Origin: Gemmatimonadales bacterium
GTDB lineage: Bacteria; Gemmatimonadota; Gemmatimonadetes; Gemmatimonadales; GWC2-71-9
Length of the DNA: 64,000 nt
Assembly (NCBI GenBank): GCA_036265815.1
Contig: DATAOI010000102.1
Coordinates: 45,194-109,193 of the forward strand
Direction of reading: 5' to 3'
Shown: piece after piece, positions 1-57,924 of the stretch
Layout of the letters: every line of letters begins with the position of its first letter
How positions within the stretch are numbered: position 1 is the stretch's first letter
Made by a program: the position numbers and the translations under genes
The notes under the pieces: generated by a model
What the model saw: the letters and a program-made list of their open reading frames with translations, nothing else
What the model was told of the DNA's origin: nothing
Database searches by the model: none

Positions 1-2249
1 CCTTGCGACAGCACCAGCAGCAGGATCTCCCGCGGCACGGCGCCGAGTGCCATGCGGATCCCGATCTCGCGGCTCCGTCGCACCACCTGGTGCGCCATCA
101 CGCCGTAGATCCCGACCGCGCCCAGGGTGAGCGCGACCAGCGCGAAGCCGGTGACCAGCAGCATCGTGAGGCGGCGCTCGGCGGTCCAGGACCCGAGCGC
201 CTGCTCCATGGTCTGCACCTCGGAGAGCGGGATGTTGGGATCGACCTCGTCCAGCGCCGCCCGCAGTGCGGGGGCCAGCCGGGCGGGGCTGCCGCTGGCC
301 CGGACCGCGAGGTAGAGCGACCGCGCGGCGGTTCCGGTCCCGGCGGGAAACTGCGCATGGGGCAGAAACATCTCCGGACGCGGCTCGTCGCTGAGCCCAC
401 GACGCCGGACGTCGCCCACGATCCCCACCACGGTGCGCCACACCGAGTCGACCGCCCCGCCACCCAGGAGCACCCGCTGGCCGAGCGCGTTTCCTCCCGG
501 CCACACCTTGCGCGCCAGGGTCTGGTTGATCACCACCGCGCCCGGCGCGTCGAGGCGGTCCTCCGGCTCGACTCCCCTGCCTTGCAGCACCGGGATGCGC
601 ATGGTGCGGAAGTAGTCCGGGGTGACCACCTCCCAGTCCGCCGGGTGCCAGTCCCCCGGAGCGGGCGGGGTGGAGAATGCGCCTTCGATCACGAAGGACC
701 AATCCCCGATGTCGGTCTGCCCGGTCATCGGGAGCGCCCGGACCGCCGCCGCGGAGGTGACGCCGGGAATGGCGCGGACCCTTCGAAGCAAGTTGTCGTA
801 CAGCGCGCGAATCTCCGGGCTGTGCGGATACCTCACCGAGGTGAGCTCGATCCGCGCGGTCAGCAGGTGTTCCGGATCGAACCCGGGATCGACCCCACGG
901 ACCCGAAGGAAGCTCTGCACCAGCAGTCCGGCGCCGATCAAAAGCACCAGCGCGAGGGCGATCTGTCCCACGACGAGGCCGCGGCGGAAGCGCTGGCCCG
1001 CCGCGCCCGAGCTGCCCCAGCGACCCCCTTCCGCCAGCGTGGTGGCCAGATCGACCCGCCCGGCATGCAGGACCGGCACCAGGCCGAACAGCAGCGCGGC
1101 CGACAGCGACGCCGCCGCCGCGAACGTCAGGACCCACCCGTCGACCTCGATCGCGCCGAGGCGCGGGACGCTGGAAGGCGCGGCGAGTATCAGCCCGCGA
1201 ACGCCCCACGCCGCGAGCAGCAACCCGACCAGTCCGCCGATCGTCGCCAGGGCGACGCTCTCGGTGATCAGCTGGCGCACGATCCGGCCGCGCCCGGCAC
1301 CGAGCGCCGACCGCAGGGCCATCTCCCGTTGCCGGGACTCGGCGCGGGCCAGCAGCAGGCTCGCCACGTTGGCGCAGGCGATGAGCAGGAGCAGGCCGAC
1401 GGCGCCGAGCAGCAGCAGGATCGCGGGGCGGGCGGCACCGACCACCTGATCATCCACCGGCCGCACCGACGCGGTGAACCCGGGCAGGTAGTCGTTGGGA
1501 TAGGCGTCGCGCATGCGATGCGCCAGCCCGGCCACCTCGCGTTCCGCCGCCGCGGCGTCGACGCCGGGGCGGAGCCGCCCGATCATCTGAAGGAAGTGCC
1601 AGCCCCGCACGCTGCGATCGGTGGCCGGATCGAGCTGCAGGGGTCCCCACAGCTCCATCTCCGAGCCGGCGAAGTGGAGTGGAAGCTGAAAGCCGGGAGG
1701 CATGACGCCGACGATGGTCGTGGTCGCGTCATCCAGGATCACCGTCCGGCCGATGACGGACCGGTCGGCACCGAACCGGCGCCGCCATACGCCGTCGCTC
1801 AGGAGCACCACGGGGGAATGGCCCGGCAGATCATCGTCGGTCGTGAGGCCCCGCCCGATCGCGGGCGCGACCCCGAGGAGCGGGAGGGCCTCGGCAGTGA
1901 CATACCCCATCTGCAGCCGCTCCGGGGTGCCGCTGCCGGTCAGATTGACCGAGCCGCCGGCGAAGGCCGCGACTCCCTGGAAGGAGTGAGCCTGCTCCCG
2001 CATCTCGCAGTATTCCGGGACGCTGAGCTCGGCCTGGGCCTTCTGCTCTCGCCAGCCCCAGATCATGACCAGCTGCTCCGGCCGCTGGTACGGCAGCGGG
2101 CGGAGCAGCACGCCGTTCACCACGCTGAAGATCGCGGTGGTGGCGCCGATGCCGAGTGCCAGGGTGAGGACCGCGACGGCGGCGAAGCCGGGCCGCTGCC
2201 GCATCCCCCGGAAGGCGTAGCGCAGGTCGGAGGCGACGGCGTCGATCAT
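1..2249 (-). CDS. ADOP-family (duplicated FtsX/MacB-type) ABC permease, permease 5 of the array. The 3' end runs off the window.
   Basis: Absent from the ORF track because there is no stop in the window. Reverse-strand reading from ATG 2249 gives [54 protein letters not shown], the same N-terminus as the four upstream paralogues. Nt 60-130 read [25 protein letters not shown] (second FtsX module). The ATG overlaps the upstream TGA (ATGA). The 783-aa plus-strand ORF 3..2354 is its antisense shadow. Confidence 0.85.
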
Positions 2250-4705
2250 TCCGACCTGAGCGAGATCATCGGATCCACCCGCAGCGCCCGCCGGGCCGGC
2301 AGGTACGTCGCCGCGAGCGCTACGATCCCAAGCAGGGCCGCGACAGCGGCATAGGTGACCGGATCCCGCGAGGACACGTCGTAGAGCTGACTCGAGAGCA
2401 CCCGGCTCAACGCCCAGGCGCCAACCAGCCCGAGGCCCAGTCCGATGAGCACCAGCCGCATGCCTTGACCCACCACCAATCCCAGCACATCGGAGGATCC
2501 CGCCCCGAGCGCCACCCGGATGCCGATCTCGTGTCGACGCTGGGTGGTGGTGTAGGCCATGACCCCGTAGATGCCGATGGCCGAGAGCAGGAGCGCGATG
2601 CCCGCGAACAGGGTGAGCAGGAGCAGCGAGAACCGCCGTTCCGCGCTGGCGTTGGTGAGCACACGCTCCATCGGCATGATGCCGAAGACCGGCTGGTCCG
2701 GCTCCGCCTCGCGGATCGCTCGGGTCACTGCCGTGCCCAGCCGCTCGGGCGGCCCGTCGGTGCGGACGATAAAGGACATCTCCTGACCCGGCCGGTACAG
2801 ACTGGAGAGGTAGAACTCCTCGCGCGCCGGCTGGTCGGGCGCCTGCTGACGTACGTCTCCGACCACGCCCACCACGCTGACCCACGGTCCCGTGGATCCG
2901 AAGAGCTGAATCCGGCGTCCGATCGGGCTCTCACCGGGCCAGTACTTCTCGGCCAGCGTCCGGTTCACCAGGACCTCGCCTCGCGAAGCCGAGTCGGCCA
3001 CGGATGAGAGCTGCTGCCCGCGCAGCAGGGGGATCTGCATGGTCTCGAAATAGTTCGGCGTCACCAGCCGGAATTCGGCGCTGGGCGACGGCTGGTCGGG
3101 CGGCGTCGGCCGGCCTTCAATCTCGAAGCGGGCGTCGTTGCTGCCGCGGAACGGCAGCCGGGAGGTGAGCGCGACCGCGCGCACACCCGGCACGCGCTGC
3201 ACCGCCGCGAGTGCCGCGCTGTAGAAGCCCCGGCGCTGCGCGTCGGTGAAATACTTCCCCTTCTCCGGCTCGTTGCGGACCGGGAGCCACACCTGAAGAG
3301 TCAGCAGGTGTTCGGGGTTGAAGCCCGGTTCCACCGCGATCAGCCGCTGGAAGCTCCGGAGTAGCAGCCCGGCGCCAGCCAGCAGCATGAGCGCCACCGC
3401 CACCTCGGTCACCACCAGGGTGCTCCGGACCCGCGCCCGCGGCACGCCGCTGGTGGCGCCGCGGGCCGAATCCTTGAGTACGCTCTGCAGATCGGGGCGG
3501 GACGCCTGAATCGCCGGGATCATTCCGAAGCCCAGGCCGGTGAACAGGATAAGGAAGGCACTGAAGCCCAGCACCGCGCGATCGATCCCGATCTCGCGGG
3601 CGCGGGGAAGGTAGAGTGCGGCGAGGTGCTCCAGTGCGCTGGTGCCCCACATGGCGATGAACAGCCCCAGCACTCCGCCCAGCGCCGCGAGCAAGAGGCT
3701 CTCGGTGAGGAGCTGCCGCACCAGGCGCATCCGGCTCCCGCCGAGCGCGGTGCGGATGGCGATCTCGCGATCCCGGGTGGTGGCGCGCGCGAGCAGCAGG
3801 TTGGCGACGTTGGCGCAGCCGATGAGCAGCACGAATCCCACGGCGCCGAGCAGCACCAGCAAGGCGGGCCGCACATTCCCCACCACCCGCGCCGCCAGCG
3901 GGATCGCGTCCACCTGCCAGCCGACCGCGGGAGGGTAGGAGTTGGGATACGCTTCGGCCAGCCGGTGCGTCAGGATGGCGAGCTGAGAGTGGAGCTCATC
4001 CGGTGTCGCCCCGGGCTTGAGCCGGCCGATGAGATCGAACACCCGCGCGCCCCGAACGTTCAGGAAGGTGGTGTCGGGATTGTCCAGCGAGACCGGGGCC
4101 CACAGCTCCATCGGGGAGGCGCCGCTCTCCACCGGATGGCGGAAGCCCTTCGGCATGACGCCGATGATGGTGATCGGATCGTCGTCCAGCCTGACCGTCT
4201 TGCCGATGACCCCACGGTCCCCGCCGAAGTGCGATTGCCAGAGATCGTAGGAGATGAGGGCGACGAAGCCGATGTGCCCGATGTCGTCGGCCTTGGTGAA
4301 GTCGCGCCCGAGCACCGGAGCCGTGCCCAGCACCGAGAAGTAGTTGGTGCTTACGACCGCCGCCTGGATCCGCTGAGGCTCGCCCAGGCCGGTGAGATTG
4401 ATGTTGATCGGCCAGATCGCCGAGATCTCGCGCAAGGCGGGCACGCCGCTGAGCAGATCGTGGTACTCCGGCTGCGACATCGGCACGTTGTTCCGGTCCC
4501 GCCCGGTGAGCCGGGCGCGGATCGAGACCAGCTGGTCGGGCTCGGCGTAGGACAGTGGCTTGAGCAGCACCGCGTTGACCACGCTGAAGATCGCGGTGTT
4601 GGCGCCGATCCCCAGCGCCAGCGTGAGCACGGCGATCGCGGTGAACCCCGGACTCCGGATCAACCCGCGGAGCGCGAAGCGAAAGTCCCGCCAGAGCGTG
4701 TCCAT
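2246..4705 (-). CDS. ADOP-family MacB-type ABC permease (permease 4)
   Basis: Track ORF 2246..4708. Reads [41 protein letters not shown], has two 4-TM FtsX-like modules each preceded by a large periplasmic domain, and ends [22 protein letters not shown] 4705 matches the paralogue N-termini. GTG 4708 is the alternative. Either start overlaps the ATPase TGA. Confidence 0.9.
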
Positions 4706-5415
4706 CACGCCACCTCCTGATGAAACGGGCCGCGCCCATCGAGCCGACCGTCGAACAGATAGATCGTGCGCTGGGCATGCCGGAGATACCGGGGATCGTG
4801 GGTCACCATACAGATCGTCGCCCCACCCTGGTGCAGCTCGGCCAGGAGCTCCATGACCTGCTGGCCGCTCTTGGAGTCGAGGCTGCCCGTCGGCTCGTCG
4901 GCCAGGAGCACCAGCGGCCGGCCCGCGATCGCCCGGGCCACCGCCACCCGCTGTTGCTGCCCGCCGGAAAGCTGGGCCGGGTAGTGGCCGATCCGGTGCA
5001 GCATCCCGACCCGGTCGAGCGACTCGTACACCGCATCGCGCCGCTCCTTGGGCGACATCCCCCGGTACTTGAGGGGCAGCTCGATATTCTGGAACACGGT
5101 GAGGTCGCCGATCAGGTTGAACGCCTGGAAGATGAAACCGACCGCGCGACAGCGGACCCGGGCCCGGCGCTCGCGTGAGAGCGTGGCCACGGGCTCGCCC
5201 GCGAGGATGTAGCTCCCCTCGCTGGGCGAATCGAGCAGGCCGAGGATGGAGAGCAGGGTGGTCTTGCCGCAGCCCGAGGGACCACCGATGGCCACGTACT
5301 CACCGGCCCGGATCTCCAGATCGATGTTGGAGAGCGCGTGGGTCTCCACCTCTTCCGTGTGGAAGATCTTGGAGACTCCGACGAGCCGGATCAGGGGATC
5401 GATGGGAAGCGGCAT
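4705..5415 (-). CDS. ABC transporter ATP-binding protein, MacB/LolD-like (ATPase B)
   Basis: Walker [10 protein letters not shown], signature [14 protein letters not shown], Walker [13 protein letters not shown]-loop MVTHD. Track ORF 4705..5619 carries a 68-aa Gly/Arg-rich extension that overlaps the upstream permease. ATG 5415 ([18 protein letters not shown]) lies 2 nt after the upstream TAG. Confidence 0.9.
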
Positions 5416-5417
5416 GG

Positions 5418-7850
5418 CTATTCCGACCGGAGCGCCGTGACCGGATCCACCAGCGCCGCCCGGCGCGCGGGCAGCGCCGCGGCCAGCACGGCGACGAAGC
5501 TGAGGACCACGAGGCCGGTCGCGAATGTCGGTGGATCGGTCGGGCTCACCCGGAAGAGCAGGCCGGAGAGTAGCCGGGTGAGCACCAGCGCCCCGACCAG
5601 GCCCAGGGCAAGGCCCCATCCCGCGAGCATCGCGCCATGCCGCACCACCATGGTGAGCACGTCCCGGCTCTGGGCGCCGAGCGCGATGCGGATGCCGATC
5701 TCCTGCACCCGCTGGGTCACCCCATAGGAGATGATGCCGTACACGCCAATGGCGGCGAGCAGCAGCGCGATGCCGCCGAACGCGGTGAGGAGCATGGTGC
5801 TGAAGCGGGTCTGCGAGAGTGATGCTGTGATCCGCTGATCCATGGTGCCGATGTTGTAGACCGGGACCGTCGGGTCCACCGCGCGGACCGCGTCACGAAT
5901 GGTCCCCGCCGCGGCGATCGGCTCGCCCGAGGTGCGCACCGCCAGCGTCATGGTGCGGTCGAGCCAGCCCCACGCCACCCCGGGCGCCTGCGCCACCGGC
6001 AGGTAGAACTCGGGATCGGGATCCTCGGCCAGTCCCCTCGCCCGGGTATTGGCCACGACACCGATCACGGTCTTCCACGCCGGTCCGCCGTCAGGATTCT
6101 CGTCACAGCAGGCGACCCGTTTGCCGATCGGGTCCTCGCCCGGCCAGGCCTGGCGGGCAAGCTCCTCGTTGATCACCATCGCCAGCGGCGCGCCGGCACG
6201 ATCTTCGGCGGTGAAGGTCCGGCCGCGGCGGAGCGCGATGCGCATGGTTTTGAAGTAATCCGGCGTCACCAGCCGGAGCGACGAGTTGATGGCCGACTCG
6301 ATGCCCAGCGGGCGCCCCTCGGGTACCAACCCGTTGGTGCCACCTCCCTCCAGCGGGGCCGAGGACACCAGACCCGCCGCCACCACGCCCGGCGCGTGCT
6401 CCAGCTGCTCGGCGAAACGGGCGAAGGCCCGCTGCGTCTGCTCCGGCGCCTGGTACCCCGCCGCCGGCAGGCTCACCCGGGCGGCCAGCACGTTCCGGGG
6501 ATCGAACCCTGGATCTACCCCGTCGAGCGCGATGCCGGTCCGGATCAGCAGCCCGGCGCCGGTGAGGAGCACCAGTGCGAGCGCGATCTCCGCCACCACC
6601 AGCGTGCTCCGGAGGCGATCGCGGCGTCCGGCCGCTCCCAGAGCACGCCCACCTTCCTTGAGCGCCTGCTGCGGGAAGCTCGCGGCCATCCGGAGCGCCG
6701 GGGCGATGCCGAAGATGAGACCGCTCGCCAGGGTAACCAGCAGCGCGAACCCGAGCGCCATGCCATCCACTCGCGCCTGGGATAGCCGGGGCACGTCGGC
6801 CGGTCCGATCGCGACCAGAGCCGTCACTCCCCAGTATGCGGCGAAGGCGCCGAGCACACCGCCAGCGGCCGCGAGCACCAAGCACTCCGTCAGAGCCTGC
6901 CGCAGGATGTGGCCGCGCCCCGCGCCCACCGCGGCGCGGATGGCCGTCTCGTGCGAGCGGGCGGCAGCGCGGGCCAGCAGCAGGTTGGCGATGTTGGCGC
7001 AGGCGATGAGCAGGACGAATCCCACGGCGCCGAGCAGGACATACAGCCGGGGCCGGTACTCGCGGATCAGCTCCTCCTGGAACGGCTTTGCCGCCAGCCC
7101 GCGCTCGGCGTTGTCCTTGGGAAACCGCCGCTGCAGGTCCGCCGCGATGGCGTTCAGCTCGGCGGTGAGCTGCTGCAGCGTGGCGCCGGGCTTGAGCCGG
7201 CCGAGCACCGTGAGGTAGTGCTCGTCGTGCATCGCCAGGCGCTCGGGGGTCAGCTCGAACGGGACCCAGAGCTCCTCGTCGTGCACGGCGTAGTCGAGCG
7301 ACGCCGGCATGACCCCGATCACGGTGTACGGTTGCCCCTCCAGCCGCACCTCCCGGCCGACGATGGCCCGGTCGCCCCCGAACCGGCGGCGCCAGAGCCG
7401 GTCGCTCAGGATTACCACGCCGTCGTGGCCCGGCTGATTCTCTTCGGCCGCAAAGTCCCGGCCCAGCGCCGGCCGCACGCCGAGGAGCCGGAAGTAGTCC
7501 GCCCCGACCCGGGCGCTGGGGACATTCTCGGGCAGATCGCCTTCGGAGAGATTGAGGCTCGCGCCCTGGGCCGGCACCAGATACTGGAGCAGATGATCCT
7601 CTCGCCTGGTATCCGCCCAGTTGCCGACCGAGAAGTCGCCGCGCATTCCGCGCCAGGCCTCACTGACCAGCAGCACGTTCCCCGGGTCGGCCCAGGGGAG
7701 CGGGCGGAACAGCACCGCGTAGACCACGCTGAAGATCGCGGTGGTGGCGCCGATGCAGAGCGCGAGCGTCAGGACCACGGCCCCGGTGAGCGTCGGGCTC
7801 TTCCGGAGAGAGCGGACGGCGAAGCGGAGATTCTGGAGGAAGGCGTCCAT
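5418..7850 (-). CDS. ADOP-family MacB-type ABC permease (permease 3)
   Basis: 810 aa. Reads [41 protein letters not shown] and ends ALPARRAALVDPVTALRSE. Duplicated FtsX architecture. The start lies 1 nt after the upstream stop. Confidence 0.9.
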   Translation of the reverse strand: MDAFLQNLRFAVRSLRKSPTLTGAVVLTLALCIGATTAIFSVVYAVLFRPLPWADPGNVLLVSEAWRGMRGDFSVGNWADTRREDHLLQYLVPAQGASLNLSEGDLPENVPSARVGADYFRLLGVRPALGRDFAAEENQPGHDGVVILSDRLWRRRFGGDRAIVGREVRLEGQPYTVIGVMPASLDYAVHDEELWVPFELTPERLAMHDEHYLTVLGRLKPGATLQQLTAELNAIAADLQRRFPKDNAERGLAAKPFQEELIREYRPRLYVLLGAVGFVLLIACANIANLLLARAAARSHETAIRAAVGAGRGHILRQALTECLVLAAAGGVLGAFAAYWGVTALVAIGPADVPRLSQARVDGMALGFALLVTLASGLIFGIAPALRMAASFPQQALKEGGRALGAAGRRDRLRSTLVVAEIALALVLLTGAGLLIRTGIALDGVDPGFDPRNVLAARVSLPAAGYQAPEQTQRAFARFAEQLEHAPGVVAAGLVSSAPLEGGGTNGLVPEGRPLGIESAINSSLRLVTPDYFKTMRIALRRGRTFTAEDRAGAPLAMVINEELARQAWPGEDPIGKRVACCDENPDGGPAWKTVIGVVANTRARGLAEDPDPEFYLPVAQAPGVAWGWLDRTMTLAVRTSGEPIAAAGTIRDAVRAVDPTVPVYNIGTMDQRITASLSQTRFSTMLLTAFGGIALLLAAIGVYGIISYGVTQRVQEIGIRIALGAQSRDVLTMVVRHGAMLAGWGLALGLVGALVLTRLLSGLLFRVSPTDPPTFATGLVVLSFVAVLAAALPARRAALVDPVTALRSE

Positions 7851-7851
7851 G

Positions 7852-10263
<2,412 letters not shown>

Positions 10264-10267
10264 CGGG

Positions 10268-12685
10268 TTACTCCGAGCGCAGGGCGACCATCGGGTCGAC
10301 CCGAGTGGCACGGCGCGCCGGCGCATAGCATGCGACCACCCCGACGGCGATCAGGAGGACGATGATCCCGGCGAAGACCGCGGGATCGGTTGCGCTGACA
10401 CCATACAGCAGGGCCCCCAAGACCCTGGAGAAGGCAGCGGCGCCGGCGATCCCCACCACCAAACCGGCACCGACCAGCCCGAGTCCCCGCTTCAGCACGC
10501 CACCCAGCACCGCATTGCGAGTCGCACCCAGCGCGAGCCGGATGCCCAGCTCCCGGGTGCGCTGCACCACGGTGTACGCCATGACCCCGTAGAGCCCCAC
10601 GCCCGTGAGCACCAGCGCGAGGGCCGCGAAGCCGGCCAACAGGGCCATGCTGAAGCGCCGGCGCGCGAGCGCGTCGCCCAGGTACGCCTCGAGTGGCCGG
10701 ATTTCCGCCACGGCGAGCTCGGGATCGAGGGCGTGGATCTGCGCGGTTACCGTGAGCGCGAGTTCTGCGGGATCGCCGCTTGTGCGGAGGACCAGGTTCA
10801 TGAAGTTCGACGGGAACTGCTCCAGCGGCCAATACGTCGTCGGGCTGGCGGCTGAATCGACGCCGGTGTGCTTCACGTCGGCGACGACGCCCACGATGGT
10901 TGCCGTGAGCGTATCGCCCCAGGGCATGACGATTCGCTGCCCCAGTGGCTTCTCTCCGGGCAGGTACCGCTGCACGAAGCTTTCGCTCACCACCACGGAT
11001 CGGGGCTGCAGTGGCCCGTCGGCCGGCGTGAGCGCCCGCCCCTGGAGCAACGCGATCCGCATGGTCCGGAAGTAATCCGGATCTACCGCGCGGACGTCGG
11101 TGCCCAGCTTCTCGCCGGGACGCGGTGCCGGGCGGTTCTCGAACCAGAAGCTCGTGGCGGAGCGGAGGCCGGAGAGCGGAAGCCAGTTGATCCCGCCCGC
11201 GGCGCTCACGCCAGGAAGCGCGCGCAGCCGGCTCAGCGCCGCGTCAAAGAAGGCAACCTGCTGCTCGGGTTTCGGGTACCGCAGCTCGGGCAGCGTGACC
11301 CGGGCGGTGAGCACGTGCTCGGGGTCGAAGCCGAGATCGACCTGCTGCAGACGCGCGAAGCTCTTGAGCAGCAGCCCGGCACCGACCAGGAGCACCAGAG
11401 ACAGTGCGACCTGAGCCGCGACCAGCACGGCCTGCGTCCTGGCCCCTCCGCCTGAGGAGGCGCGTCCGCCTTCCTTCAGAGATTCGTGCAGGTCGGCCCG
11501 GCCCGCGTGGACGGCCGGGACCAACCCGAAGAGGATGCCGGCGGCCGAGGAGATGACGAGGGTGAACCCCAGGGTGGCGAGATCGACGTGGACCTCACCC
11601 AATCGAGGAATTTCCACGGCGGCCCGCGCCACCAGCGCGTCCGTCAGCCAGACGGCAAGCAGCACGCCGGCCATCCCCGCAACGAGCGCGAGCAGGAGAC
11701 TCTCCGCCAGGAACTGGCGTACCACCCGCGAGCGGCTCGCTCCGAGCGCCGCCCGGACGGCGATTTCCCGCCGGCGCGCCGTCGCCCGGGCGAGCTGAAG
11801 ATTGGCCGCGTTGGCGCAGGCGATCAGCAGCACCAGGACTACCACACCCGCCAGCACCAGTAGCGTGCGCCGTACCTGGCCCGTGGCCATGTCGCGCATC
11901 GGCACCAGATTCACCGACCAGCCGCTGTTGAAGTCGGGATGCACGTCCGCCAGCCGACGGGCGATCGTGCCCATCGCCGCCTGGGCCTGGGCGCGGCTGA
12001 CCGTGGGCTTGAGCCGTGCGAGAGCCAGCATGAACCGCCCTGAGCTCGCGCGATAGTCAGTGGCGGGATCGAGGGCGAACGGAACCCAGAGCTCGGGTGC
12101 GTGCGGAAGACCCACGATCCCTGCGCCCGGTGGGAGCACCCCGATGATCGTGTGGGGCTTGCCGTCCAGCGAGAGCGTCTGGCCGACCACGTTCCTCGAT
12201 CCGCCGAAGCGCCGCTGCCAAAGCCCGTGGCTCAGGACCACAACCGGCGGTCCGCCGGGCGCGTCCTCCTCGGCGGTGTAGGCCCGGCCAACAATCGGGC
12301 GGAGGCCCAGCAGGGGGAAGAGATCGGAGGTCGCGAGCTGGACCGGAACCTCGATCGGCTCGCCTCCGCCGGTCAGGTTCATCCGCACCTCGTACACTCC
12401 GGCCATCCGCTCGAAGACCTGGTTCTGCGCCTTCCAGTCCAGGAAATCTCCCGGAGACACCACATTGCGGTCGCGGTGCCGGGACTCGTTGGCCGCGAAG
12501 ACCATCACCAGGCGGTCGGGGGCCGGATACGGCAACGGCCGCACCAGCACCGCATTGATCACCGAGAAGATCGCGGTGTTCGCCCCGATCCCGAGGGCGA
12601 GACAGGCGACGGCCGCGGCGGTGGACGCCGGCGTACGGCGAAGCTGCCGGAGCGCGTAGCGGATATCCTGGAGAATCGAATCCAT
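10268..12685 (-). CDS. ADOP-family MacB-type ABC permease (permease 1)
   Basis: 805 aa. Reads [41 protein letters not shown] and ends [19 protein letters not shown]. Confidence 0.9.
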
Positions 12686-12710
12686 GGCAAACGGTCCTGA
12701 TGGAAATGGG

Positions 12711-13409
<699 letters not shown>

Positions 13410-13535
13410 GGGAGTCTCGGGCCTTGGCGATTGGCGGTGAATCAATGAGGGATGGGCGATGAGCCACGACTCCCGGGTCCTGCGCGGTCACGTCGGTTAG
13501 CCAGCACGAGCCATGGCCCATGCCCATCGTTGCGG

Positions 13536-14783
13536 TCATTCGACTCTCACGCGGTCGAACCCATCCCAGCGGGACATGTCGGAGATGATCACCTTGTCAC
13601 CCGGCTGGAGGCCGCCCAGCACCTCGACGGTGTTGACCGACGTGCGGCCCAGCCGGACGTTCACCCGTACCGCGGTGGTGCCGTCCTCGATCAGCTTGAA
13701 CAGGCCTACCGTGCTCCCGGCCTGCCCATACGCGGGCCGCCCGACGTGGAGCACGTTGTCCAGCCGCTCGACCTGGATGGTGCCATCGACCGACAGGTCC
13801 GGCCGGGCGCCGCGGGGCAGCTCGCCTTCCAGCGATACGTCCACCGTGACGGTGCCGTTGAGCACCGCCGGGTCCATCCGCGACACCTTCCCGCGGGCGA
13901 TTCCGTTGCGGGTGTCGATCGCGGCGGGTTGACCCAGAGTGACGTCCTTGGCCTGCGTCTCCGGAATGCGAAGCACCGCCTTGAGCCGGCCCGGCTCCAC
14001 GATCCGGGCGAGCGACGCGCCCGACTGGGCCCACTGCCCCACCTCGAGGGAGAGCTCCTGCAGCGTGCCGTTCGCGCCGGCCTTCACCACCATGGAGCGG
14101 ATCCGGCCGCGCTGGAACTCGGTCACGTCCCGCAGCCGGTTCACCTGGGCCTGCTGCAGCGCGAGCTGCGAGTCGGCGGCCTGGGTCATCACCTGCAGCC
14201 GTTCCTGCTCGACCTTGAACCGGGTGCTCAGCTCCTCCAGCCGATCCTGCGCCCGGCTGGCCTCGCTGGTCGAGATGAGCTGCTTGGCCGCGAGCGAGTC
14301 GGAGGCGTCCGCCGTCCGCTTGGCATCGAGGAACGCGGCCTTCGCCGCCGCGACCGTCGCCTCCTGGTTGAGCCGCTGGGTGGCGAGCGTGGCGCGGAGG
14401 TTCACCCGATCAGCTTGGGCCACGCTGAGCTGGCGCTCGGACTCGAGTGCCTGGAGCTGGACGTCGGGGTTGCTCATCTCCAGCAGGACCGTCTCGGCCG
14501 TCACTTCCTGGCCGGGCTGGGCCAGCCGCTGCTCGACCCGGCCGGCCGTCACGGCGGAGATGTAGCGGATCCTCTCCGGCACCAGGGTACCCGGGCCGCG
14601 CACTTCGATCACCAGGGGCCCACGCACTACGGAATCCACCCAGACGGCCGCGCGGTCGACCTTGGGGGCGGCCGGCTTCAGGTTGCGCAGGCCGACCGTC
14701 GCCAGCACGATGGCCAGGAGCCCCAGGCCCCCATACATGAGCCGCTTGCGTCCGCGTTTGGCTGGTTCCCTCGGAATGTCCAC
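13536..14783 (-). CDS. Efflux membrane-fusion (periplasmic adaptor) protein, HlyD/MacA family
   Basis: 415 aa. N-terminal TM anchor (LMYGGLGLLAIVLATVGL). Lipoyl-like halves flank a long coiled-coil hairpin (QLQALESERQLSVAQADRVNLRATLATQRLNQEATVAAAKAAFLDAKR ... RLEELSTRFKVEQERLQVM). C-terminal beta-barrel and MP domain. First gene of the operon. Confidence 0.85.
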   Translation of the reverse strand: MDIPREPAKRGRKRLMYGGLGLLAIVLATVGLRNLKPAAPKVDRAAVWVDSVVRGPLVIEVRGPGTLVPERIRYISAVTAGRVEQRLAQPGQEVTAETVLLEMSNPDVQLQALESERQLSVAQADRVNLRATLATQRLNQEATVAAAKAAFLDAKRTADASDSLAAKQLISTSEASRAQDRLEELSTRFKVEQERLQVMTQAADSQLALQQAQVNRLRDVTEFQRGRIRSMVVKAGANGTLQELSLEVGQWAQSGASLARIVEPGRLKAVLRIPETQAKDVTLGQPAAIDTRNGIARGKVSRMDPAVLNGTVTVDVSLEGELPRGARPDLSVDGTIQVERLDNVLHVGRPAYGQAGSTVGLFKLIEDGTTAVRVNVRLGRTSVNTVEVLGGLQPGDKVIISDMSRWDGFDRVRVE

Positions 14784-14918
14784 GCTGCTGCCTCACTCGT
14801 CGCATGATGAATCGCACGCCCTGCCCTATGAAAGGTGCGTGCCACCTGAGGCGAACCCGCAAAGCACGGTCGTACAAAGGGTTGCCAGTCGGCCCTGGGG
14901 TTGGGATCCAGTTCGAGC

Positions 14919-14954
14919 GTTCGGTCATGGGATCGACAAATCCCACATCCGAAC
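14919..14954. promoter_or_regulatory. Imperfect 36-bp inverted repeat (candidate operator or 5'-UTR hairpin) upstream of the efflux operon
   Basis: GTTCGG tca TGGGAT cgacaa ATCCCA cat CCGAAC: two 6-bp arms on each side around a 6-nt centre. It lies about 135 nt upstream of the adaptor start (14783), in a stretch of lower GC (14790-15010). Confidence 0.3.
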
Positions 14955-15067
14955 ACAGCGTCCAACTGCGTTGGATGCCGCGAGCGTCGACAAGGTTCGG
15001 ATTGAGAAGGGTCCTGCTCATCGTGGGGAGCTGCTGCTGTGGCGGCGCGGCTGCGCCAGCCGGTCTG

Positions 15068-16048
15068 CTACGGCGTGCCCAGGCTGGCCCGACTGGGTTT
15101 CGAGCTGCTCTTCTGAGGCCTGATCCGGGCGAGATCCTCCCGGAGCAGCGCCTGATTCACGGCCATGCCGGCCTCCGCCCCTTCGGCCGCGGCCACCACC
15201 ACGAACTGCGCCTCCCGCGACGCGTCGCCGCAAACGTAAAGGCCCGGCAGGTTAGTGGACTCGCACTTTCCGGTGTCCACCGCCCCGGCCTCGGTGAACG
15301 CGCATCCCAAGCGGCCCGGCAGGTCGGAGCGCTGGTGGTGGCCGGCGGCCAGGAAGAGCGCCCGGCGGTCCACGCTGCTTCCATCGAGGAAGACCACCCG
15401 CTCCAGCTGGCCGTCGGCGCCGTCGAGCCGAAGTACCCGCTCCTCCCGCAGGGGCACGCCGACAGCGTCCAGCCTCTCGCGCAGGTGCTCGGGCAGCTCC
15501 GCCGGCCCGTCGGTGCAGAGCACCAGATCATCGGTCCAGACCGTGAGGGCCAGCGCGAGGCCGGCGCCAGCTTCCCCTTGGCCGTAGACGGCAATCGGCT
15601 GATCGCGCCATTCCCAGGCATCGCAGTAGGGACAGTGATGCACGCTCAGGCCGTACAGCGGCGCGAGGCCCTCGATCTCCGGGATCTCGTCGACCACCCC
15701 GGTGGCCAGCAACAGCTTCCGGCTCCGGAGCAGCGTCCCGTCGGCGCAGCGCACGGCGAACCCGTCGGCCTCGGGCGCGGCATCCACCACGTTCGCGTGG
15801 CGCAGCTCGATGCTCTGGTATCGCCGGAGCTCGTCGCGGGCGAGCCGCAGGAGCTCGGAGGGAGGCGTGCCGTCTCGGGTGAGAAATCCGTGGATCTCTC
15901 GGGACCACCAGTTGCGCGGCGCGCCGAGGTCGCAGACCAGCACCCGCCGGCGGCAGCGGCCGAGCATGAGTGCGGCGCTCAAGCCCGCGGGGCCGCCGCC
16001 CACGACGATGCAGTCCCAGGCGGGATCGTCAGGCCGGCGAGACTTCAC
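15068..16048 (-). CDS. Thioredoxin-reductase-like NAD(P)/FAD-dependent oxidoreductase
   Basis: 326 aa. FAD motif CIVVGGGPAGLSAA, redox-active HHCPYCDAWE at the TrxR CxxC position, second dinucleotide fold IAVYGQGEAGAG, and C-terminal GLYVCGDA. Confidence 0.8.
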   Translation of the reverse strand: MKSRRPDDPAWDCIVVGGGPAGLSAALMLGRCRRRVLVCDLGAPRNWWSREIHGFLTRDGTPPSELLRLARDELRRYQSIELRHANVVDAAPEADGFAVRCADGTLLRSRKLLLATGVVDEIPEIEGLAPLYGLSVHHCPYCDAWEWRDQPIAVYGQGEAGAGLALALTVWTDDLVLCTDGPAELPEHLRERLDAVGVPLREERVLRLDGADGQLERVVFLDGSSVDRRALFLAAGHHQRSDLPGRLGCAFTEAGAVDTGKCESTNLPGLYVCGDASREAQFVVVAAAEGAEAGMAVNQALLREDLARIRPQKSSSKPSRASLGTP

Positions 16049-16769
16049 CCGCCTCCATCACCTGTCTGAAGCGGCGGAGATCGTCGGCCACCTGCCGAGC
16101 GGGATCCTCTCCCGCGAGCCTGGCCGCCGCGGTCCCGAGCTTCCCGGCCGGGGGGGAATACCGCAGAATCACCCGAACCTCGGTGCCGTCGCCCCGGGGC
16201 GTGAAATGGACCGAGCCCGCGTGGTCCACATCGGAGTCCGGGAGCGAGCGCCAGGCGATCAACTCGTTCTCGATCTCGTTATGGATCTCCGCATCCCACT
16301 CGACCCTGGTGCCCGCCGGGCCCTTGGCCACCCAGTGAGAGCGCCGGTCATCCAGCCGAGTGACCGACTCGAGGTTGTCCATGAAGCGCGGCAGGTTCTC
16401 GAAGTTCCGCCAGAATCGGAACAGGTCTTCTCGCGCCCGGTTGATCGTGACCGACTGCTCCACCCGAGTCCCGTCGCCATGCCGGAGGCTGGCCACCCGG
16501 CTGGTTCGGCCCTCACCCTGCGCGGAGTTGCGGCCCAGCGCCCGGTTGACGGGACAGCGGCCGGTGACCCCGCGGCGAATGAGCTCTCCCCCGAGCGGCA
16601 GCAATACTCCGCGAAGACGCTTCTGTCGGAGGCTGTAGCCTACGAGGGTCAGACCCGCGAGGCCGGAGATCCACCGCTCGGTCCGGCCCACATTCACCTC
16701 TCGTCGGACGTCCCGGGGATCCAGATGCTCCCATCCGCCGGAGCGTACGCCGTCATACGTCGAAGTCAT
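16029..16769 (-). CDS. SRPBCC (cyclase/dehydrase-type) protein with an N-terminal YgaP-like/DUF2892 membrane segment
   Basis: 246 aa. N-terminal part ERWISGLAGLTLVGYSL...GVTGRCPVNRALG. SRPBCC part VEQSVTINRAREDLFRFWRNFENLPRFMDNLESVTRLDDRRSHWVAKGPAGTRVEWDAEI. Paralogue of 18117..18989. Confidence 0.75.
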   Translation of the reverse strand: MTSTYDGVRSGGWEHLDPRDVRREVNVGRTERWISGLAGLTLVGYSLRQKRLRGVLLPLGGELIRRGVTGRCPVNRALGRNSAQGEGRTSRVASLRHGDGTRVEQSVTINRAREDLFRFWRNFENLPRFMDNLESVTRLDDRRSHWVAKGPAGTRVEWDAEIHNEIENELIAWRSLPDSDVDHAGSVHFTPRGDGTEVRVILRYSPPAGKLGTAAARLAGEDPARQVADDLRRFRQVMEAGEVSPA

Positions 16770-16799
16770 CGCCGTCCTTTCGTGTGCGTGGTAAGTGAG

Positions 16800-17855
16800 T
16801 CAGCCGCGGGCCGGCTCCTGAGGCGCGATCTGGTTGTACCGGCGCGCGGCACGATCGCCGAGCCAGGTGAGCCATGATGGCGAGACCGGCGACTGGCTTT
16901 CCCGCCCGCTGAGGCGCATGCCCGTGGTCGGGTCCATTCGCGGGAGCAGGCGCGCGGCGACGCCCAGGGCCTTGCTGGTGAGCTCGGGCGCGAGTCCGTT
17001 GGCGGCCGCCGCGAGCCAAGTGGAGAGGGGGAAACGGACTTCGGCGTCTCCCCGGGCGCAGCCCGCCAGAATGAGGCGGGCGGCACGCTTGACCGAGATC
17101 GAGAGACCCGGCAGAGAATCCGCGATGCTGAACCAGGCGTATTCGGCGCGGTGCCTGCCGCGGAAGATGGCATTGCGTGGGCTGCCCGTACGCATCAACC
17201 CGGGCACCACCGCCACCACCGCGATCCCCTCGGCGGCGAGCTCGGCCCGGAGCGCCTGAGTCAAGCCCAGCGCCGCAAACTTGCTCGCGCTGTAGGGGAT
17301 CAGATGAGGCACCCCGATCTTGGCCCCGACCGACGTGATGTTCACGATCCTGCCACTGCCGCGGGCCTGCATGTCGGGCAACACGGCGGCAGTGGCGTGC
17401 AGCACACCCCAGAAGTTGGTGTCCATCGCCTCCTGATAGTCCGCCAGTGACATCGCCCCGGCTGGGCCGACCTCGATTACGCCCGCGTTGTTGATCAGCA
17501 CGTCCACCGGTCCCAGCCGCACCCGAACCGATTCGATCAGCTGGCGCACCGAGGCTTGGTGCCGGACGTCGCACGGGATCGCGACGACCTCTCCCCCTCG
17601 TCTCTGAAGAAGCGAGCGCGCGCGCTCCAGGGAGCCGGCGTCCCGGCCGCAGATGGCTACCCGTGCCCCCATCGCTGACGCGGCTTGGGCGAGGGCGAGC
17701 CCCAGGCCGCGGGAGCCACCGGTGATCAGCACCGTCCGTCCGGCGAGGTCGTAGGCGGCCCGGGGCCGACGCAGGCGCCACGCGAGGGCCACGCACACTA
17801 CTGCCGCCGCCACGAGCCGCCCGCGGCGACTCCGGGCCTTGCGCGGTTTGGTCAT
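16800..17855 (-). CDS. Short-chain dehydrogenase/reductase (SDR) with an N-terminal membrane anchor
   Basis: 351 aa. TGGSRGLG (TGxxxGxG), NNAG, and catalytic YSASKFA (YxxxK). N-terminal hydrophobic segment LVAAAVVCVALAW. Confidence 0.85.
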   Translation of the reverse strand: MTKPRKARSRRGRLVAAAVVCVALAWRLRRPRAAYDLAGRTVLITGGSRGLGLALAQAASAMGARVAICGRDAGSLERARSLLQRRGGEVVAIPCDVRHQASVRQLIESVRVRLGPVDVLINNAGVIEVGPAGAMSLADYQEAMDTNFWGVLHATAAVLPDMQARGSGRIVNITSVGAKIGVPHLIPYSASKFAALGLTQALRAELAAEGIAVVAVVPGLMRTGSPRNAIFRGRHRAEYAWFSIADSLPGLSISVKRAARLILAGCARGDAEVRFPLSTWLAAAANGLAPELTSKALGVAARLLPRMDPTTGMRLSGRESQSPVSPSWLTWLGDRAARRYNQIAPQEPARG

Positions 17856-18148
17856 CGCTTGCCGGACCGGCGGCGCGAGTTGGCGGGCCGGGCGCCTTTG
17901 GCGACCTCCCGGTCGTGCTGTTTGTCGTCGAGGGTGGCGCTCAGCCCATCCCGGTGGTCCGGATCCGCCACTTCGTCGGCCGGGGAGGCGTAGTGGCGAC
18001 CAATCCGGTCCTCGTCGCGCGGGTCTTCCAGATCGAGCTCCTCCGGCGCAGTCTCGCCCGCATCCGGCTGCTCCAGTGCGAAGCGGCGCCGCTCATCCTC
18101 CGACATGGTGGCGAAGTCACGACCCAGATTCTTGGCCATGCGTCTCAC
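17852..18148 (-). CDS. Small acidic hypothetical protein
   Basis: Track ORF of 98 aa, rich in D/E with a basic tail (ARPANSRRRSGKR). Alternative starts are ATG 18139 (MAKNLGRDF) and ATG 18106 (MSEDERRRF). Only the last avoids overlap with the upstream gene. No family recognised. Confidence 0.5.
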   Translation of the reverse strand: MRRMAKNLGRDFATMSEDERRRFALEQPDAGETAPEELDLEDPRDEDRIGRHYASPADEVADPDHRDGLSATLDDKQHDREVAKGARPANSRRRSGKR

Positions 18149-18989
18149 TCCTCACGGTACTCTCGAGCAAGGCCTTCATCCGCCCGAGGTCCTCGTTCAA
18201 TTTGGCGCGGGGATCCGCCCCGAAGAGCTCGGCCACGGCCGCGCCGGCACCGCCGCCCGGAGGGTTGTAGCAGAGTCGGAAGTCGATTCCGGTTCCGACC
18301 CCCTCCGTCCGGAAGCGGATGACGCCCGCGTTTTCCAGCGTGGAGCCGGGCTCGCTGCGCCAGGCGATCGCTTCGTTGAGTGTATCCTGCGTCATCACCG
18401 CGTCCCATTCGACCGGAACGCCCGCGGGTCCGCTCACCACCCAATGGGAGCGTCCGGCGCCGAGGTCGGTCACCGACCGCACGTTCGACATGAAGAGCGG
18501 GAAGTTCTCGTAGTTGGTCCAGAAGGCGTACACCCGTTCGACCGGCGCTGCGATGTGCAGCGTCTTCTGGATATCGATCGTCCGGCGCCGCTCGCCCCGG
18601 CGCGGACCCCGGCCGGCCACGCCGGTCCGGAGGTTGGCGGCCAGCAGACCGACGCCCACGGTGCGCGTGGCGGAGCCGACAACACCCCGGCGGGAGAGGC
18701 CGTAGAGGGAGAGGACGCCGCCGGCCAGCGCCAGTATCAGCTCCACGAGTGAGCGGGATGCCGGGCCGCTACGGGTCAGATTCGCGGCCTCCAACCCGCC
18801 GATGTCTCCTGCCCGGCTTCCGTATCGACGCACCGCCATCGGCTCGGCGGCGGGCGCGCCGGATCGGACAGTCATCCGGGTGATGCGCACGCGCGCGCGA
18901 GTTCTTCTCGCTTCCCCACGCTCCGGATCCAGGAAGTAGACCAATCCGGCGCCGAGTGCCGCGCCACTCAAGAAATCCTTGGCTCCCAT
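18117..18989 (-). CDS. SRPBCC (cyclase/dehydrase-type) protein, second paralogue
   Basis: Track ORF 18117..19037. ATG 18989 gives MGAKDFLSGAALGAGLVYFLDPERGEARRTRAR. Core QKTLHIAAPVERVYAFWTNYENFPLFMSNVRSVTDLGAGRSHWVVSGPAGVPVEWDAVM aligns motif for motif with 16029..16769. Confidence 0.75.
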   Translation of the reverse strand: MGAKDFLSGAALGAGLVYFLDPERGEARRTRARVRITRMTVRSGAPAAEPMAVRRYGSRAGDIGGLEAANLTRSGPASRSLVELILALAGGVLSLYGLSRRGVVGSATRTVGVGLLAANLRTGVAGRGPRRGERRRTIDIQKTLHIAAPVERVYAFWTNYENFPLFMSNVRSVTDLGAGRSHWVVSGPAGVPVEWDAVMTQDTLNEAIAWRSEPGSTLENAGVIRFRTEGVGTGIDFRLCYNPPGGGAGAAVAELFGADPRAKLNEDLGRMKALLESTVRSETHGQESGS

Positions 18990-19033
18990 ACGCTCAAACC
19001 TGCCTGTTCGGCGTGCTGAGGCTGTGATCGCCC

Positions 19034-19085
19034 TCACACGAGGCGCTCACACGAGGCGTTCACACGAGGCGCTCACCTGAGCGGT
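19034..19085. repeat. 13-bp tandem direct repeat, three full copies plus a degenerate fourth, in a divergent intergenic region
   Basis: TCACACGAGGCGC / TCACACGAGGCGT / TCACACGAGGCGC / TCACCTGAGCGGT at 19034, 19047, 19060 and 19073. It lies between the minus-strand start at 18989 and the plus-strand start at 19183. Confidence 0.9.
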
Positions 19086-23190: not shown

Positions 23191-23196
23191 TCTGGC

Positions 23197-23910
23197 TTAC
23201 GGCGTGGCCGGGGGCTCCGCGCGGAACGTGACCACCAGGGCGTCTCGGTAGGCGGGCTGCCCGGCGATGCTCACCTTCAGCGGGGTGACCCCATGCCAGA
23301 CCCGCCGGTCATCGAGGAGCACCGCGTCGAGCGGCTCCCGCAGCTCGAACGTGCCGAGCGGCCGTTGCTGCTCGTCGCCGATCGCGGTGACACCGCCGGC
23401 GACGTTGCGGCGCGCCACCAGCGTCACCAGCACCCAGTCGACGCCGTCGCGATGCATTCCCTCGGGCGTCGGCTTCCCTTCGTGCGCCCCGTCGGGCTCG
23501 ATCCGGAACTGGTGCATCTCGACGTGCCAGCGGTCGGGCACCGGGCCCTGGGTCGAGGCGGCGAACGCGCTGCGGCAGATCGCCAGGATCCGCTGGGTGA
23601 TCGGATGCGCAGCAATCAGGTCGGTGACCGGCTCGAACCACCGCTCGATGCCGCCGTTCAACGAATTGTAGGCCCGCTCCTGATAGTGGGGCTGGTGCGG
23701 CTTGCGGACGATGGTCGAGGCCGTGACCGAGAAGCAGCCGAACCGCCGCCGGCGATAGCGACCGCCATCCGCCATGAAATGATCGACGTCCAGCTCGTTC
23801 CAGCTCCTGGCGAACCCAGCCCAATCGGCCAGCGCTTCCGGACCAATGAGCCCCCGCAGCTCGGCGGCCGGCACGATGCGAAATCCCGGCTCCGGCACGC
23901 GAAGCTGCAT
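23197..23910 (-). CDS. 2OG-Fe(II) dioxygenase of the free-amino-acid hydroxylase type (2OG-Fe_Oxy_2-like)
   Basis: Track ORF 23197..24051. ATG 23910 gives MQLRVPEPGFRIV. The facial triad is visible: GMHRDGVD (HxD) and a distal RRVWHGVTP. Also YRRRRFGCF and YNSLNGGIER. Confidence 0.65.
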   Translation of the reverse strand: MQLRVPEPGFRIVPAAELRGLIGPEALADWAGFARSWNELDVDHFMADGGRYRRRRFGCFSVTASTIVRKPHQPHYQERAYNSLNGGIERWFEPVTDLIAAHPITQRILAICRSAFAASTQGPVPDRWHVEMHQFRIEPDGAHEGKPTPEGMHRDGVDWVLVTLVARRNVAGGVTAIGDEQQRPLGTFELREPLDAVLLDDRRVWHGVTPLKVSIAGQPAYRDALVVTFRAEPPATP

Positions 23911-23933
23911 CGGTGCCAACAGTCGCGCGCCCA

Positions 23934-25280: not shown

Positions 25281-25307
25281 CGGATGGGGAAGCGCTTTCC
25301 TAACCGC

Positions 25308-26730: not shown

Positions 26731-26805
26731 GGCGCGAACGGTCGCGAGCGTCGGTCAGCGCTGGGGCCGGACAATCGCCAAGCGACTGCGCATTACTCTT
26801 CTCCC

Positions 26806-57873: not shown

Positions 57874-57924
57874 GCAGCGATTCCGGCCGGTAGGGCTCTT
57901 GTCGGGCCCTGCCGGCCGATTCGT

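Follow-up and report, generated by a model that had tools for sequence, protein, structure and literature searches.

A 64-kb stretch of DNA from a soil Gemmatimonadales bacterium (the window; about 70% GC throughout) carries, at positions 1-14783, an array of eight genes for a periplasmic adaptor, two ATP-binding cassette (ABC) ATPases and at least five permeases of the ADOP family. Comparison with related loci leads us to propose that the array encodes a MacAB-like export system in expanded form, in which a shared adaptor–ATPase engine would serve alternative permeases in periplasmic or outer-leaflet export; we give this proposal an even chance of being right. A stronger version is more tentative. 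It would have the one engine pair with any of at least five to six ADOP cassettes, giving a family of tripartite pumps from one sigma-54 operon whose repertoire each species tunes by cassette gain and loss, and we consider it possible rather than probable.

The eight genes all lie on the minus strand and are read in the same direction. From the upstream end, the array is composed as follows.

Adaptor, 13536-14783, minus strand: MacA/HlyD-type periplasmic adaptor of 415 residues with an N-terminal membrane anchor, a long alpha-hairpin and a GTG start; followed by 126 nt to ATPase A.
Adaptor–ATPase A spacer, 13410-13535, minus strand: 126 nt, can form a hairpin of about 21 bp.
ATPase A, 12711-13409, minus strand: MacB/LolD/DarD-class ABC nucleotide-binding protein of 232 residues, catalytic motifs all intact; 25 nt to P1.
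P1, 10268-12685, minus strand: ADOP-family fused permease of 805 residues with 8 predicted transmembrane (TM) helices and two periplasmic domains; 4 nt to P2.
P2, 7852-10263, minus strand: ADOP-family fused permease of 803 residues, from the fastest-evolving orthogroup (53-60% identity in the close clade); 1 nt to P3.
P3, 5418-7850, minus strand: ADOP-family fused permease of 810 residues, with an identical protein on four JGI metagenome contigs; 2 nt to ATPase B.
ATPase B, 4705-5415, minus strand: MacB/LolD/DarD-class protein of 236 residues with an ABC_tran domain and intact motifs; followed by TGATG, a 1-nt overlap with the P4 ATG.
P4, 2246-4705, minus strand: ADOP-family fused permease of 819 residues, from the best conserved permease orthogroup (64-88% identity); followed by ATGA, a 4-nt overlap with P5.
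P5, 1-2249 (window edge to 2249), minus strand: ADOP-family fused permease cut by the edge, at least 749 residues long (749 of about 820 in the window); its orthologue in a related locus (L085) has 821.

A first-pass annotation of the window had described this gene order, with gaps of 126, 25, 4, 1 and 2 nt and then two overlaps, and all gene coordinates and spacings were reproduced here; the junction it wrote as GTGATG is the 1-nt TGATG overlap. Its view that the copies are intact also held: no frameshift or internal stop was seen in any window copy, and JGI gene calls on 100%-identical metagenome fragments have the same lengths (805, 803, 810 and 236 residues). After the first gap the genes are separated by 1-25 nt or overlap, which supports the reading of the array as a single operon, and we infer that it is transcribed as a single transcript. 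Internal promoters or terminators, which would point to independent units, did not emerge above chance. A sigma-70-like scan inside the array gave no signal above chance, with low power at 70% GC in a non-model phylum; a second sigma-54-like site was not found inside the array by a scan of similarly low power; and four terminator-like matches, from a scan also weak at 70% GC, compare with a shuffled expectation of 4.2. An Rfam scan of positions 1-16100 returned zero matches.

We assigned the permeases to the ADOP family with the NCBIfam profile TIGR03434 (803 positions, curated cut-off 622.3 bits). P1 to P5 score 988, 962, 950, 964 and 886 bits, all far above the cut-off, and the P5 match covers profile positions 2-731 of 803, P5 being shortened by the window edge. 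Pfam finds two MacB_PCD (PF12704) and two FtsX (PF02687) stretches in each of the five. These matches confirm the ADOP identity given in the first-pass annotation, as the alignments do the shared N-terminal and C-terminal motifs that it listed. Hydropathy predicts 8 TM helices, in agreement with the secondary structure of an AlphaFold2 model of P1, and no linking TM pair; the two halves of each permease are joined instead by a hydrophilic cytoplasmic linker of about 15-25 residues. The P1 model was built from a 5-sequence alignment and has a global predicted local distance difference test (pLDDT) score of 62, and only its secondary structure was used. Among solved structures P1 is nearest to MacB (5nik, E = 1e-18 by phmmer against the PDB; also 5gko and 5lil, down to 1e-16). 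Both coupling helices of the ADOPs carry the motif RxREIxxRxALGA. About one-fifth of the best ADOP representatives in the P1 search (for example P0121, P0126 and P0131) are 870-890 residues long and reach about 75 residues beyond the N-terminus of P1, possibly through a mis-called start or an added domain.

The five paralogues are old: identity is 40-45% in each of the ten pairs, neighbour-joining distances are all about 1.0 and the window holds no recent permease duplicates, so that, on these identities, the duplications are ancient and not the simple recent events that pairwise alignment might have revealed. Mean identity between paralogues is 64% over the N-terminus and TM1, 51-58% over the other membrane blocks and 35-36% over the periplasmic domains, which bears out the greater periplasmic divergence noted on first inspection. 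At finer scale the values are 70% for TM1, 70% for TM2, 64% for the C-terminal tail, 57-61% for the coupling helices and 34-36% for the periplasmic parts. In MacB-type proteins TM1 and TM2, the C-terminal tail and the coupling helices are the stalk and ATPase-docking parts. The first-pass annotation had taken the periplasmic divergence as a mark of substrate specialisation, and here it does not stand. Orthologues are 59% identical in the periplasmic domains versus 74% in the membrane parts (divergence ratio 1.66), and paralogues 33% versus 53% (ratio 1.43). Because the same rate bias is seen between orthologues, the divergence is not evidence of specialisation; by this comparison, fast periplasmic divergence is a property of the ADOP family and gives no sign that the copies have specialised for substrates.

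To place the array in context we used its adaptor to scan one genome per species, which gave 179 relatives, and examined 80 of the loci (numbered here with the prefix L), whose adaptors are 53-94% identical to that of the window. Nearly all come from metagenome-assembled genomes (MAGs) of Gemmatimonadales or other Gemmatimonadota. The eight window proteins were mapped onto these loci, with 7-24 sequences per permease orthogroup. Measured against the window copies, permease identities fall into two groups, 35-45% and 50-88%, and P1 to P5 are therefore separate orthogroups that predate the species; each paralogue also forms its own clade in a neighbour-joining tree.

Arrays of the close clade begin with the adaptor and ATPase A, continue with all, some or none of P1, P2 and P3, and then run through ATPase B and P4 to P5 or other permeases. 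The interval between the two ATPase genes, fully visible in 29 species, takes six configurations: P2 P3 in 11, P2 alone in 6, P1 P2 P3 as in the window in 6, no gene in 3, P1 alone in 2 and P1 P3 P2 in 1. ATPase A averages 91% identity to its window counterpart, the adaptor 80%, ATPase B 77% and P4 73%, with lower means of 64-65% for P1, P3 and P5 and of 56% for P2; no other gene of the operon is as well conserved as ATPase A, which stays at 88-94% identity across the close clade. To judge from these loci, the layout is a lineage-wide design in Gemmatimonadales relatives and not a one-off. A constant head of adaptor and ATPase A and a near-constant ATPase B–P4 pair, beside a permease set that varies, are compatible with exchangeable permeases around a shared core. 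In seven loci (L006, L010, L016, L017, L029, L038 and L039) permease genes were recovered in two to three tblastn pieces and are apparently frameshifted. These orthologues lie in MAGs labelled MFD and may reflect either decay or indel errors of assembly, and we did not count them as pseudogenes.

Outside the close clade the same parts recur in other proportions. Distant Gemmatimonadota have triads of one ADOP, one adaptor and one ATPase (L067, L069, L073, L075, L077 and L078); other loci have one adaptor and one ATPase with between four and at least eight ADOPs (L053, L044 and L092, with at least eight in L092); and L072 has an adaptor, two ATPases and a regulator pair with no ADOP within 9 kb. 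Permease genes outnumber ATPase and adaptor genes in the arrays, and each array has one adaptor gene regardless of its length. Because ADOP–adaptor–ATPase triads occur, the arrays may be seen as expansions of a three-part unit, and the pattern suggests that ADOPs in Gemmatimonadota work in such a MacAB-like unit.

The variation in permease content could also mean that the paralogues are redundant, doing the same job and being kept for dosage or robustness, with the differences between species arising by neutral gain and loss. Copy content does vary freely among close species, and the periplasmic domains diverge at the pace usual for the family, both as such neutral turnover would have it. Redundant copies should, however, decay or homogenise, and those studied here are ancient, at 40-45% identity, and remain in separate, intact orthogroups in many species, with no recent duplicates in the window. 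We regard redundancy as the least probable of the explanations considered.

The array probably does not end at the left edge of the window. The evidence is indirect and comes from relatives: in L085 the P5 orthologue (821 residues, 86% identical) has a stop that overlaps, in the sequence ATGA, the start of a sixth ADOP gene (MIDTLWLVLRYALRSL), and a sixth ADOP also follows P5 in L004, L006, L012, L047 and L086. A third class of ATPase, here called Nx, closes the array in L012 and L038. The continuation past the edge proposed in the first-pass annotation thus has indirect support, and its gene stoichiometry of five or more permeases to two ATPases to one adaptor is correct for the window and probably incomplete as a total. 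Because relatives carry a sixth ADOP and Nx further downstream, the 5:2:1 count is a minimum.

The ATPases bear on how the parts might be combined. ATPase A has an ABC_tran domain (122.6 bits in Pfam), and in NCBIfam it scores highest with DarD, the MacB nucleotide-binding domain and LolD, in each case under the equivalog cut-off. ATPases A and B are 72% identical (158/220 by BLASTP). The array could instead be a concatenation of independent pumps, with adaptor, ATPase A, P1, P2 and P3 followed by ATPase B, P4, P5 and P6 and then by the third ATPase, where each ATPase homodimer would serve its own downstream permeases and the adaptor would work with only some of them. A and B are indeed distinct lineages kept apart across the clade, P4 directly follows ATPase B in 26 of the 29 close-clade loci that show ATPase B (an extra permease intervenes in L035, L038 and L039), B and P4 overlap by one base in the window, and the third ATPase class ends the array in relatives, all as a modular arrangement would predict. 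Against it, ATPase A stays highly conserved (88-93% identical) in the four species in which ATPase B follows it directly, with no permease between them (L012, L026, L038 and L039), and arrays have a single adaptor gene whatever their length. Even inside a module there would be two to three permeases per ATPase, so that sharing would not be avoided. We consider this arrangement the likeliest alternative to a shared engine, if a rather doubtful one.

The Nx class shares 42-48% identity with A and B and is marked by conserved motifs of its own (GPSGAGKST, FVFQQYHL, LSGGQQQLV, DEPTGNLH and QVTHS). Its D-loop reads TGNLH instead of TGNLD, an Asp-to-His change, and the surroundings of the Q-loop and H-loop are also altered. 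It accompanies arrays at L012:20352-21101, at L038:20133-20795 and in 19 other loci. A conserved and distinct class with these changes could be one half of a heterodimeric engine, A with B or A with Nx, that places one subunit under each half of an asymmetric ADOP pseudo-dimer. Gene orders of adaptor, ATPase A, ADOP and Nx (L056 and L080; likewise L048 and L065, whose contigs end just after Nx) and of adaptor, ATPase A and Nx (L072 and L060) would suit such pairing. However, L045 has an adaptor, ATPase A, two ADOPs and a regulator pair without a second ATPase, and the minimal triads hold one ATPase only, which weakens the case for an obligatory heterodimer. The catalytic motifs are intact in A, B and Nx, with no degenerate site, and both ADOP coupling helices carry the same RxREIxxRxALGA motif. 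An engine of this kind is unlikely.

The adaptor matches HlyD_3 and HlyD_D23 in Pfam and reaches 85 bits with RND_mfp, below the cut-off of 94.9. It has a single TM segment at residues 14-33, and homologues conserve its N-terminus, which supports the GTG start. NCBI annotates an adaptor 100% identical to it in a MAG of a Gemmatimonadales bacterium. An AlphaFold2 model from 37 close homologues has a global pLDDT of only 60, with the hairpin helices 106-166 and 172-225 above 90, and we used only this high-confidence hairpin and the secondary structure. Its best Foldseek matches in the PDB are MacA of MacAB-TolC (9qgy_G and 5nik_D) and then EmrA, with low TM-scores of 0.24-0.33. Membrane-anchored adaptors with long hairpins dock on TolC-type channels, as in MacAB-TolC and EmrAB-TolC.

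The spacer between the adaptor and ATPase A has a minimum free energy of -51.9 kcal/mol in the window, which is not significant (z = -0.99). In many relatives (L004, L006, L008, L026, L031, L034, L036 and others) this spacer is 118-239 nt long with energies of -50 to -106 kcal/mol and z-scores of -3 to -9 against mononucleotide shuffles; spacers of 34-70 nt are without structure. The long versions look like a variable palindromic insert or an mRNA-stabilising hairpin.

Upstream of the adaptor lies a 285-nt spacer with two elements that point to sigma-54 control, and some related loci have a regulator and kinase pair beside the array.

Palindromic element TGTTCGgatgtGGGATttgtcgATCCCatgacCGAAC, 14919-14955, minus strand: inverted repeat, candidate site for a sigma-54 enhancer-binding protein.
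Sigma-54-like -24/-12 element GGCACGcacCTTTC, 14830-14843, minus strand: begins 61 nt before the adaptor GTG.
Regulator and kinase pair, examples at L042:17493-20235, L072:12406-15208 and L054:13250-15409, with 16 further loci.

The promoter-like sequence TGGCACGcaccTTTCA (14844-14829) reads TGGCACG-N4-TTTCA, one mismatch from the sigma-54 consensus TGGCACG-N4-TTGCW, and its core GGCACGNNNCTTYC (GGCACG-N3-CTTTC) has a single exact match in the 64-kb window. The -24 half is perfect and the -12 half has T for G; the -12 variant TTYC is kept in 42 of 43 close loci. Elements of this -24/-12 type occur in 42 of the 43 close-clade loci against a background of 4% per 300 nt. The palindrome, TGTTCG-N5-GGGAT-N6-ATCCC-N5-CGAAC, has a background rate of 0.7% per 300 nt and lies 112-113 nt upstream of the promoter-like element in the window; both elements are present in 40 of the 43 loci, at a spacing of 112-114 nt. 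An inverted repeat about 100 bp or more upstream of the promoter-like element, as expected of a sigma-54 activator site, is thus present. Besides these two elements, anchored alignments of the upstream regions across the clade show conservation of the block GCAAGTC.

Genes for a sigma-54 response regulator (domains REC, Sigma54_activat and HTH_8) and a histidine kinase (PAS-HATPase_c) flank the array, usually right after Nx, in 19 more distant loci. The operon is probably sigma-54 dependent, with a putative promoter before the adaptor that would drive the whole array, and the position of the site fits the single transcript from about 14.9 kb that had been guessed from the gene layout. The first-pass annotation had counted the lack of a regulator as a feature of the system. 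This falls as an argument because sigma-54-type control elements are conserved in front of the operon and the regulator pair flanks related arrays.

The window differs from most close relatives beside this control region. In them about 4 kb separate the adaptor from a syntenic Pyr_redox_2 gene (L010:5822-9985 and L005:4687-8777) and hold a divergent gene for a TonB-dependent-receptor-like barrel with a CarboxypepD_reg domain (about 910 residues) and one for an unknown protein of about 460 residues. The corresponding site in the window (14784-15067) has neither gene, an insertion or deletion difference. Being absent from the window, the barrel and the 460-residue protein were set aside as parts of the system.

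The kinase also bears on whether the system exports anything. Its two N-terminal membrane helices are only about 5 residues apart, so that it has no periplasmic sensor domain, and it recalls the transporter-dependent kinases of Bce-type modules; by that analogy the transporter itself might be its sensor. The ADOPs could be mechanotransducers or extractors like LolCDE, FtsEX, YbbAP and BceAB; instead of driving solutes out through a duct in the outer membrane, they would pull lipids, lipoproteins or peptides out of the membrane or signal flux to a histidine kinase. The Bce-like kinase next to the arrays of distant relatives and the lack of an outer-membrane factor gene nearby would suit this view, and several of the type VII ABC systems known so far do not work in efflux (PMC12646458, PMC5985334). 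Set against it are the membrane-anchored adaptor, which heads the operon in 179 genomes, has a confidently predicted hairpin with helices of about 55-60 residues each and finds its best fold match in MacA, and the docking of such hairpins on TolC-like channels in MacAB-TolC and EmrAB-TolC. We judge a role other than efflux to be rather improbable.

These observations can be assembled into a model of the shared-engine proposal. The operon would encode a MacAB-like envelope export system (type VII ABC, mechanotransmission type) in expanded form. Each ADOP would be a complete pseudo-dimeric membrane unit of two fused four-helix FtsX modules, each with a MacB-type periplasmic domain, and by analogy with YbbAP would depend on two ATPase copies encoded by a gene of their own. 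The two related ATPases and the one membrane-anchored MacA-type adaptor would serve at least five permeases, probably at least six. ATPase dimers and adaptor would thus form a common engine, completed by an outer-membrane channel encoded elsewhere, and would combine with alternative permeases whose cytoplasm-facing and stalk elements are conserved for shared docking. The differing periplasmic domains would select different periplasmic or outer-leaflet substrates, and the ancient paralogues, held as separate orthogroups, would make up a set that differs by species. On the patterns described above, sharing of the ATPases and adaptor among the permeases is plausible, and we infer the direction of export, the difference in substrates and sigma-54 control with similar caution.

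Several observations weigh against this model. The argument for sharing is drawn only from gene counts and conservation, and the near-constant pairing of ATPase B with P4 fits modular pumps equally well. The stronger periplasmic bias between orthologues (1.66 versus 1.43) means that paralogue divergence alone does not show distinct substrates. The structural models of P1 and the adaptor have low overall confidence (pLDDT 62 and 60). As for control, the -12 part is TTTC or TTCC where the canonical sequence is TTGC, the 64-kb window yielded no gene for a sigma-54 activator, and an unrelated gene, with no activator adjacent, comes after the array in the close relative L038. Finally, no TolC-type or OEP-family gene was found among the window genes scanned. 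The first-pass annotation had drawn on this last absence in arguing for a combinatorial pump, for which it is uninformative because E. coli tolC is likewise unlinked to macAB, and genes for outer-membrane factors are often unlinked. Of that interpretation, the operon, the ADOP identity and the intact copies survive, with the age of the duplications and the pattern of a constant core and a variable permease set in its favour, and the arguments from divergence, from the regulator and from the outer-membrane factor do not.

The rest of the window is ordinary chromosome, with redox and SRPBCC genes, a DNA ligase, an Lhr helicase, a POT transporter, glycosyltransferases, a pyrroloquinoline quinone (PQQ) dehydrogenase and a lipoyl synthase. 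Immediately upstream of the operon, at 15068-19046 on the minus strand, are genes for a Pyr_redox_2 oxidoreductase, two SRPBCC/polyketide-cyclase-like proteins, one of them with a YgaP-like TM domain, and a short-chain dehydrogenase. Most close relatives show synteny of the operon with the Pyr_redox_2 and SRPBCC genes, and we found no evidence of a functional link between the genes at 15068-19046 and the operon. At 21490-30271 an ATP-dependent DNA ligase with three ligase domains and an Lhr-type helicase (DEAD, Helicase_C, WH_Lhr and DEAD_assoc) enclose a 2OG-Fe dioxygenase (PF10014), a decarboxylase dependent on pyridoxal phosphate and a GntR-aminotransferase fusion regulator, possibly a DNA-repair neighbourhood with a small amino-acid-modifying cluster. 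The segment at 54000-60000 has a GC content of 0.65-0.66 against about 0.70 elsewhere, and a lower first-codon-position GC (0.57-0.63). It carries genes for an MFS transporter and a PQQ-dependent dehydrogenase and an unannotated open reading frame of 433 residues, and is possibly acquired DNA.

Clustered ADOP paralogues are unlikely to surprise specialists much; it is the core, the cassettes, the partner genes and the promoter that make function testable here. The ADOPs of Gemmatimonadota are not orphans, in that likely partner genes adjoin them in arrangements that run from 1:1:1 triads to one adaptor with at least eight permeases. The locus accordingly points to the ATPase and adaptor with which an ADOP might be co-expressed, and to a conserved promoter and operator through which an inducing signal might be sought. 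The presence and absence of permease orthogroups across species forms a natural matrix that can be correlated with habitat or metabolite profiles. If engine sharing is true, it extends the known assembly rules of tripartite ABC pumps. The pairing of cassettes with a common engine, if true, would be the first functional logic proposed for the ADOP family and would explain how the acidobacterial 'orphan' copies are powered.

The family itself is very large, with 74,867 clusters at 50% identity that reach E <= 1e-30, and we found no functional study of an ADOP (substrate, structure, partner or regulation) in the searchable literature. ADOPs were reportedly first described as 'orphan' in the sense that their genes do not lie beside ABC ATPase genes, and are said to have been thought acidobacterial. 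The window permeases match TIGR03434 end to end, with two FtsX and two MacB-type periplasmic domains per chain. They differ from the original picture in having two ATPase genes inside the array, as do most related loci, in lying, like the ADOP genes of 179 Gemmatimonadota genomes, in operons that include ATPases and an adaptor, and in that the closest genomes are Gemmatimonadales and Gemmatimonadota MAGs. The orphan trait is one of context and not a sequence criterion, and NCBI's current name for TIGR03434 omits the word. Acidobacterial ADOP copies often follow a PadR-type regulator; no such regulator was found near the operon in the window, which has the sigma-54-type promoter-like element instead.

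A close parallel to the array is genomic island 43 of Psychroflexus torquis, a 42-kb cluster in which ten ADOP paralogues lie together with transporter and ATP-binding proteins (PMC3914696). The P. torquis proteins are abundant or highly expressed and of unknown function, with efflux suggested (PMC3914696). That cluster is a mobile island of a Bacteroidota species with transposases and pseudogenes, for which an adaptor is not mentioned (PMC3914696), whereas the window array is chromosomal and tightly coupled, is headed by one adaptor and has a defined core conserved across the order.

Among characterized machines, MacAB-TolC of E. coli (PDB 5NIK) shares with the array the MacB-type periplasmic domain and the FtsX four-helix module, the MacB being nearest to P1, as well as ATPases of the MacB nucleotide-binding class and an adaptor with a membrane anchor and long hairpin whose best fold match is MacA. 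MacB, however, is a homodimer of 4-TM chains with a fused ATPase and one permease gene per adaptor gene; in the window the membrane halves are fused, the ATPases are separate proteins of 232 and 236 residues and there are at least five permease genes per adaptor. The MacB superfamily includes homodimers, heterodimers and fused permeases with two linking helices, such as YbbP and BceB, and fused permease halves always go with a separate ATPase (PMC5985334). In YbbAP two YbbA ATPase subunits serve each fused YbbP (PMC12646458). The array resembles YbbAP of E. coli and BceAB of Bacillus in having a single pseudo-symmetric permease chain and separately encoded ATPases. YbbP and BceB, in contrast, have 10 TM helices including a linking pair, where the window ADOPs have 8 and a cytoplasmic linker, and YbbAP and BceAB work without a MacA-type adaptor.

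The darobactin exporter DarBCD combines an adaptor, a separate ATPase and a long FtsX-type permease in a similar way, and DarD is the top model for both window ATPases. We rejected membership of this system on the models NF038007, NF038008 and NF038010, with scores far below the equivalog cut-offs at 250.6 against 375 for DarD, 47.6 against 450 for DarC and 28.7 against 700 for DarB; nor are there peptide-precursor or maturation genes near the window operon. The locus is therefore best described as a known protein family in an altered MacAB architecture: behind a conserved sigma-54-like promoter element come one adaptor, separate ATPases and many paralogues of a fused 8-TM permease.

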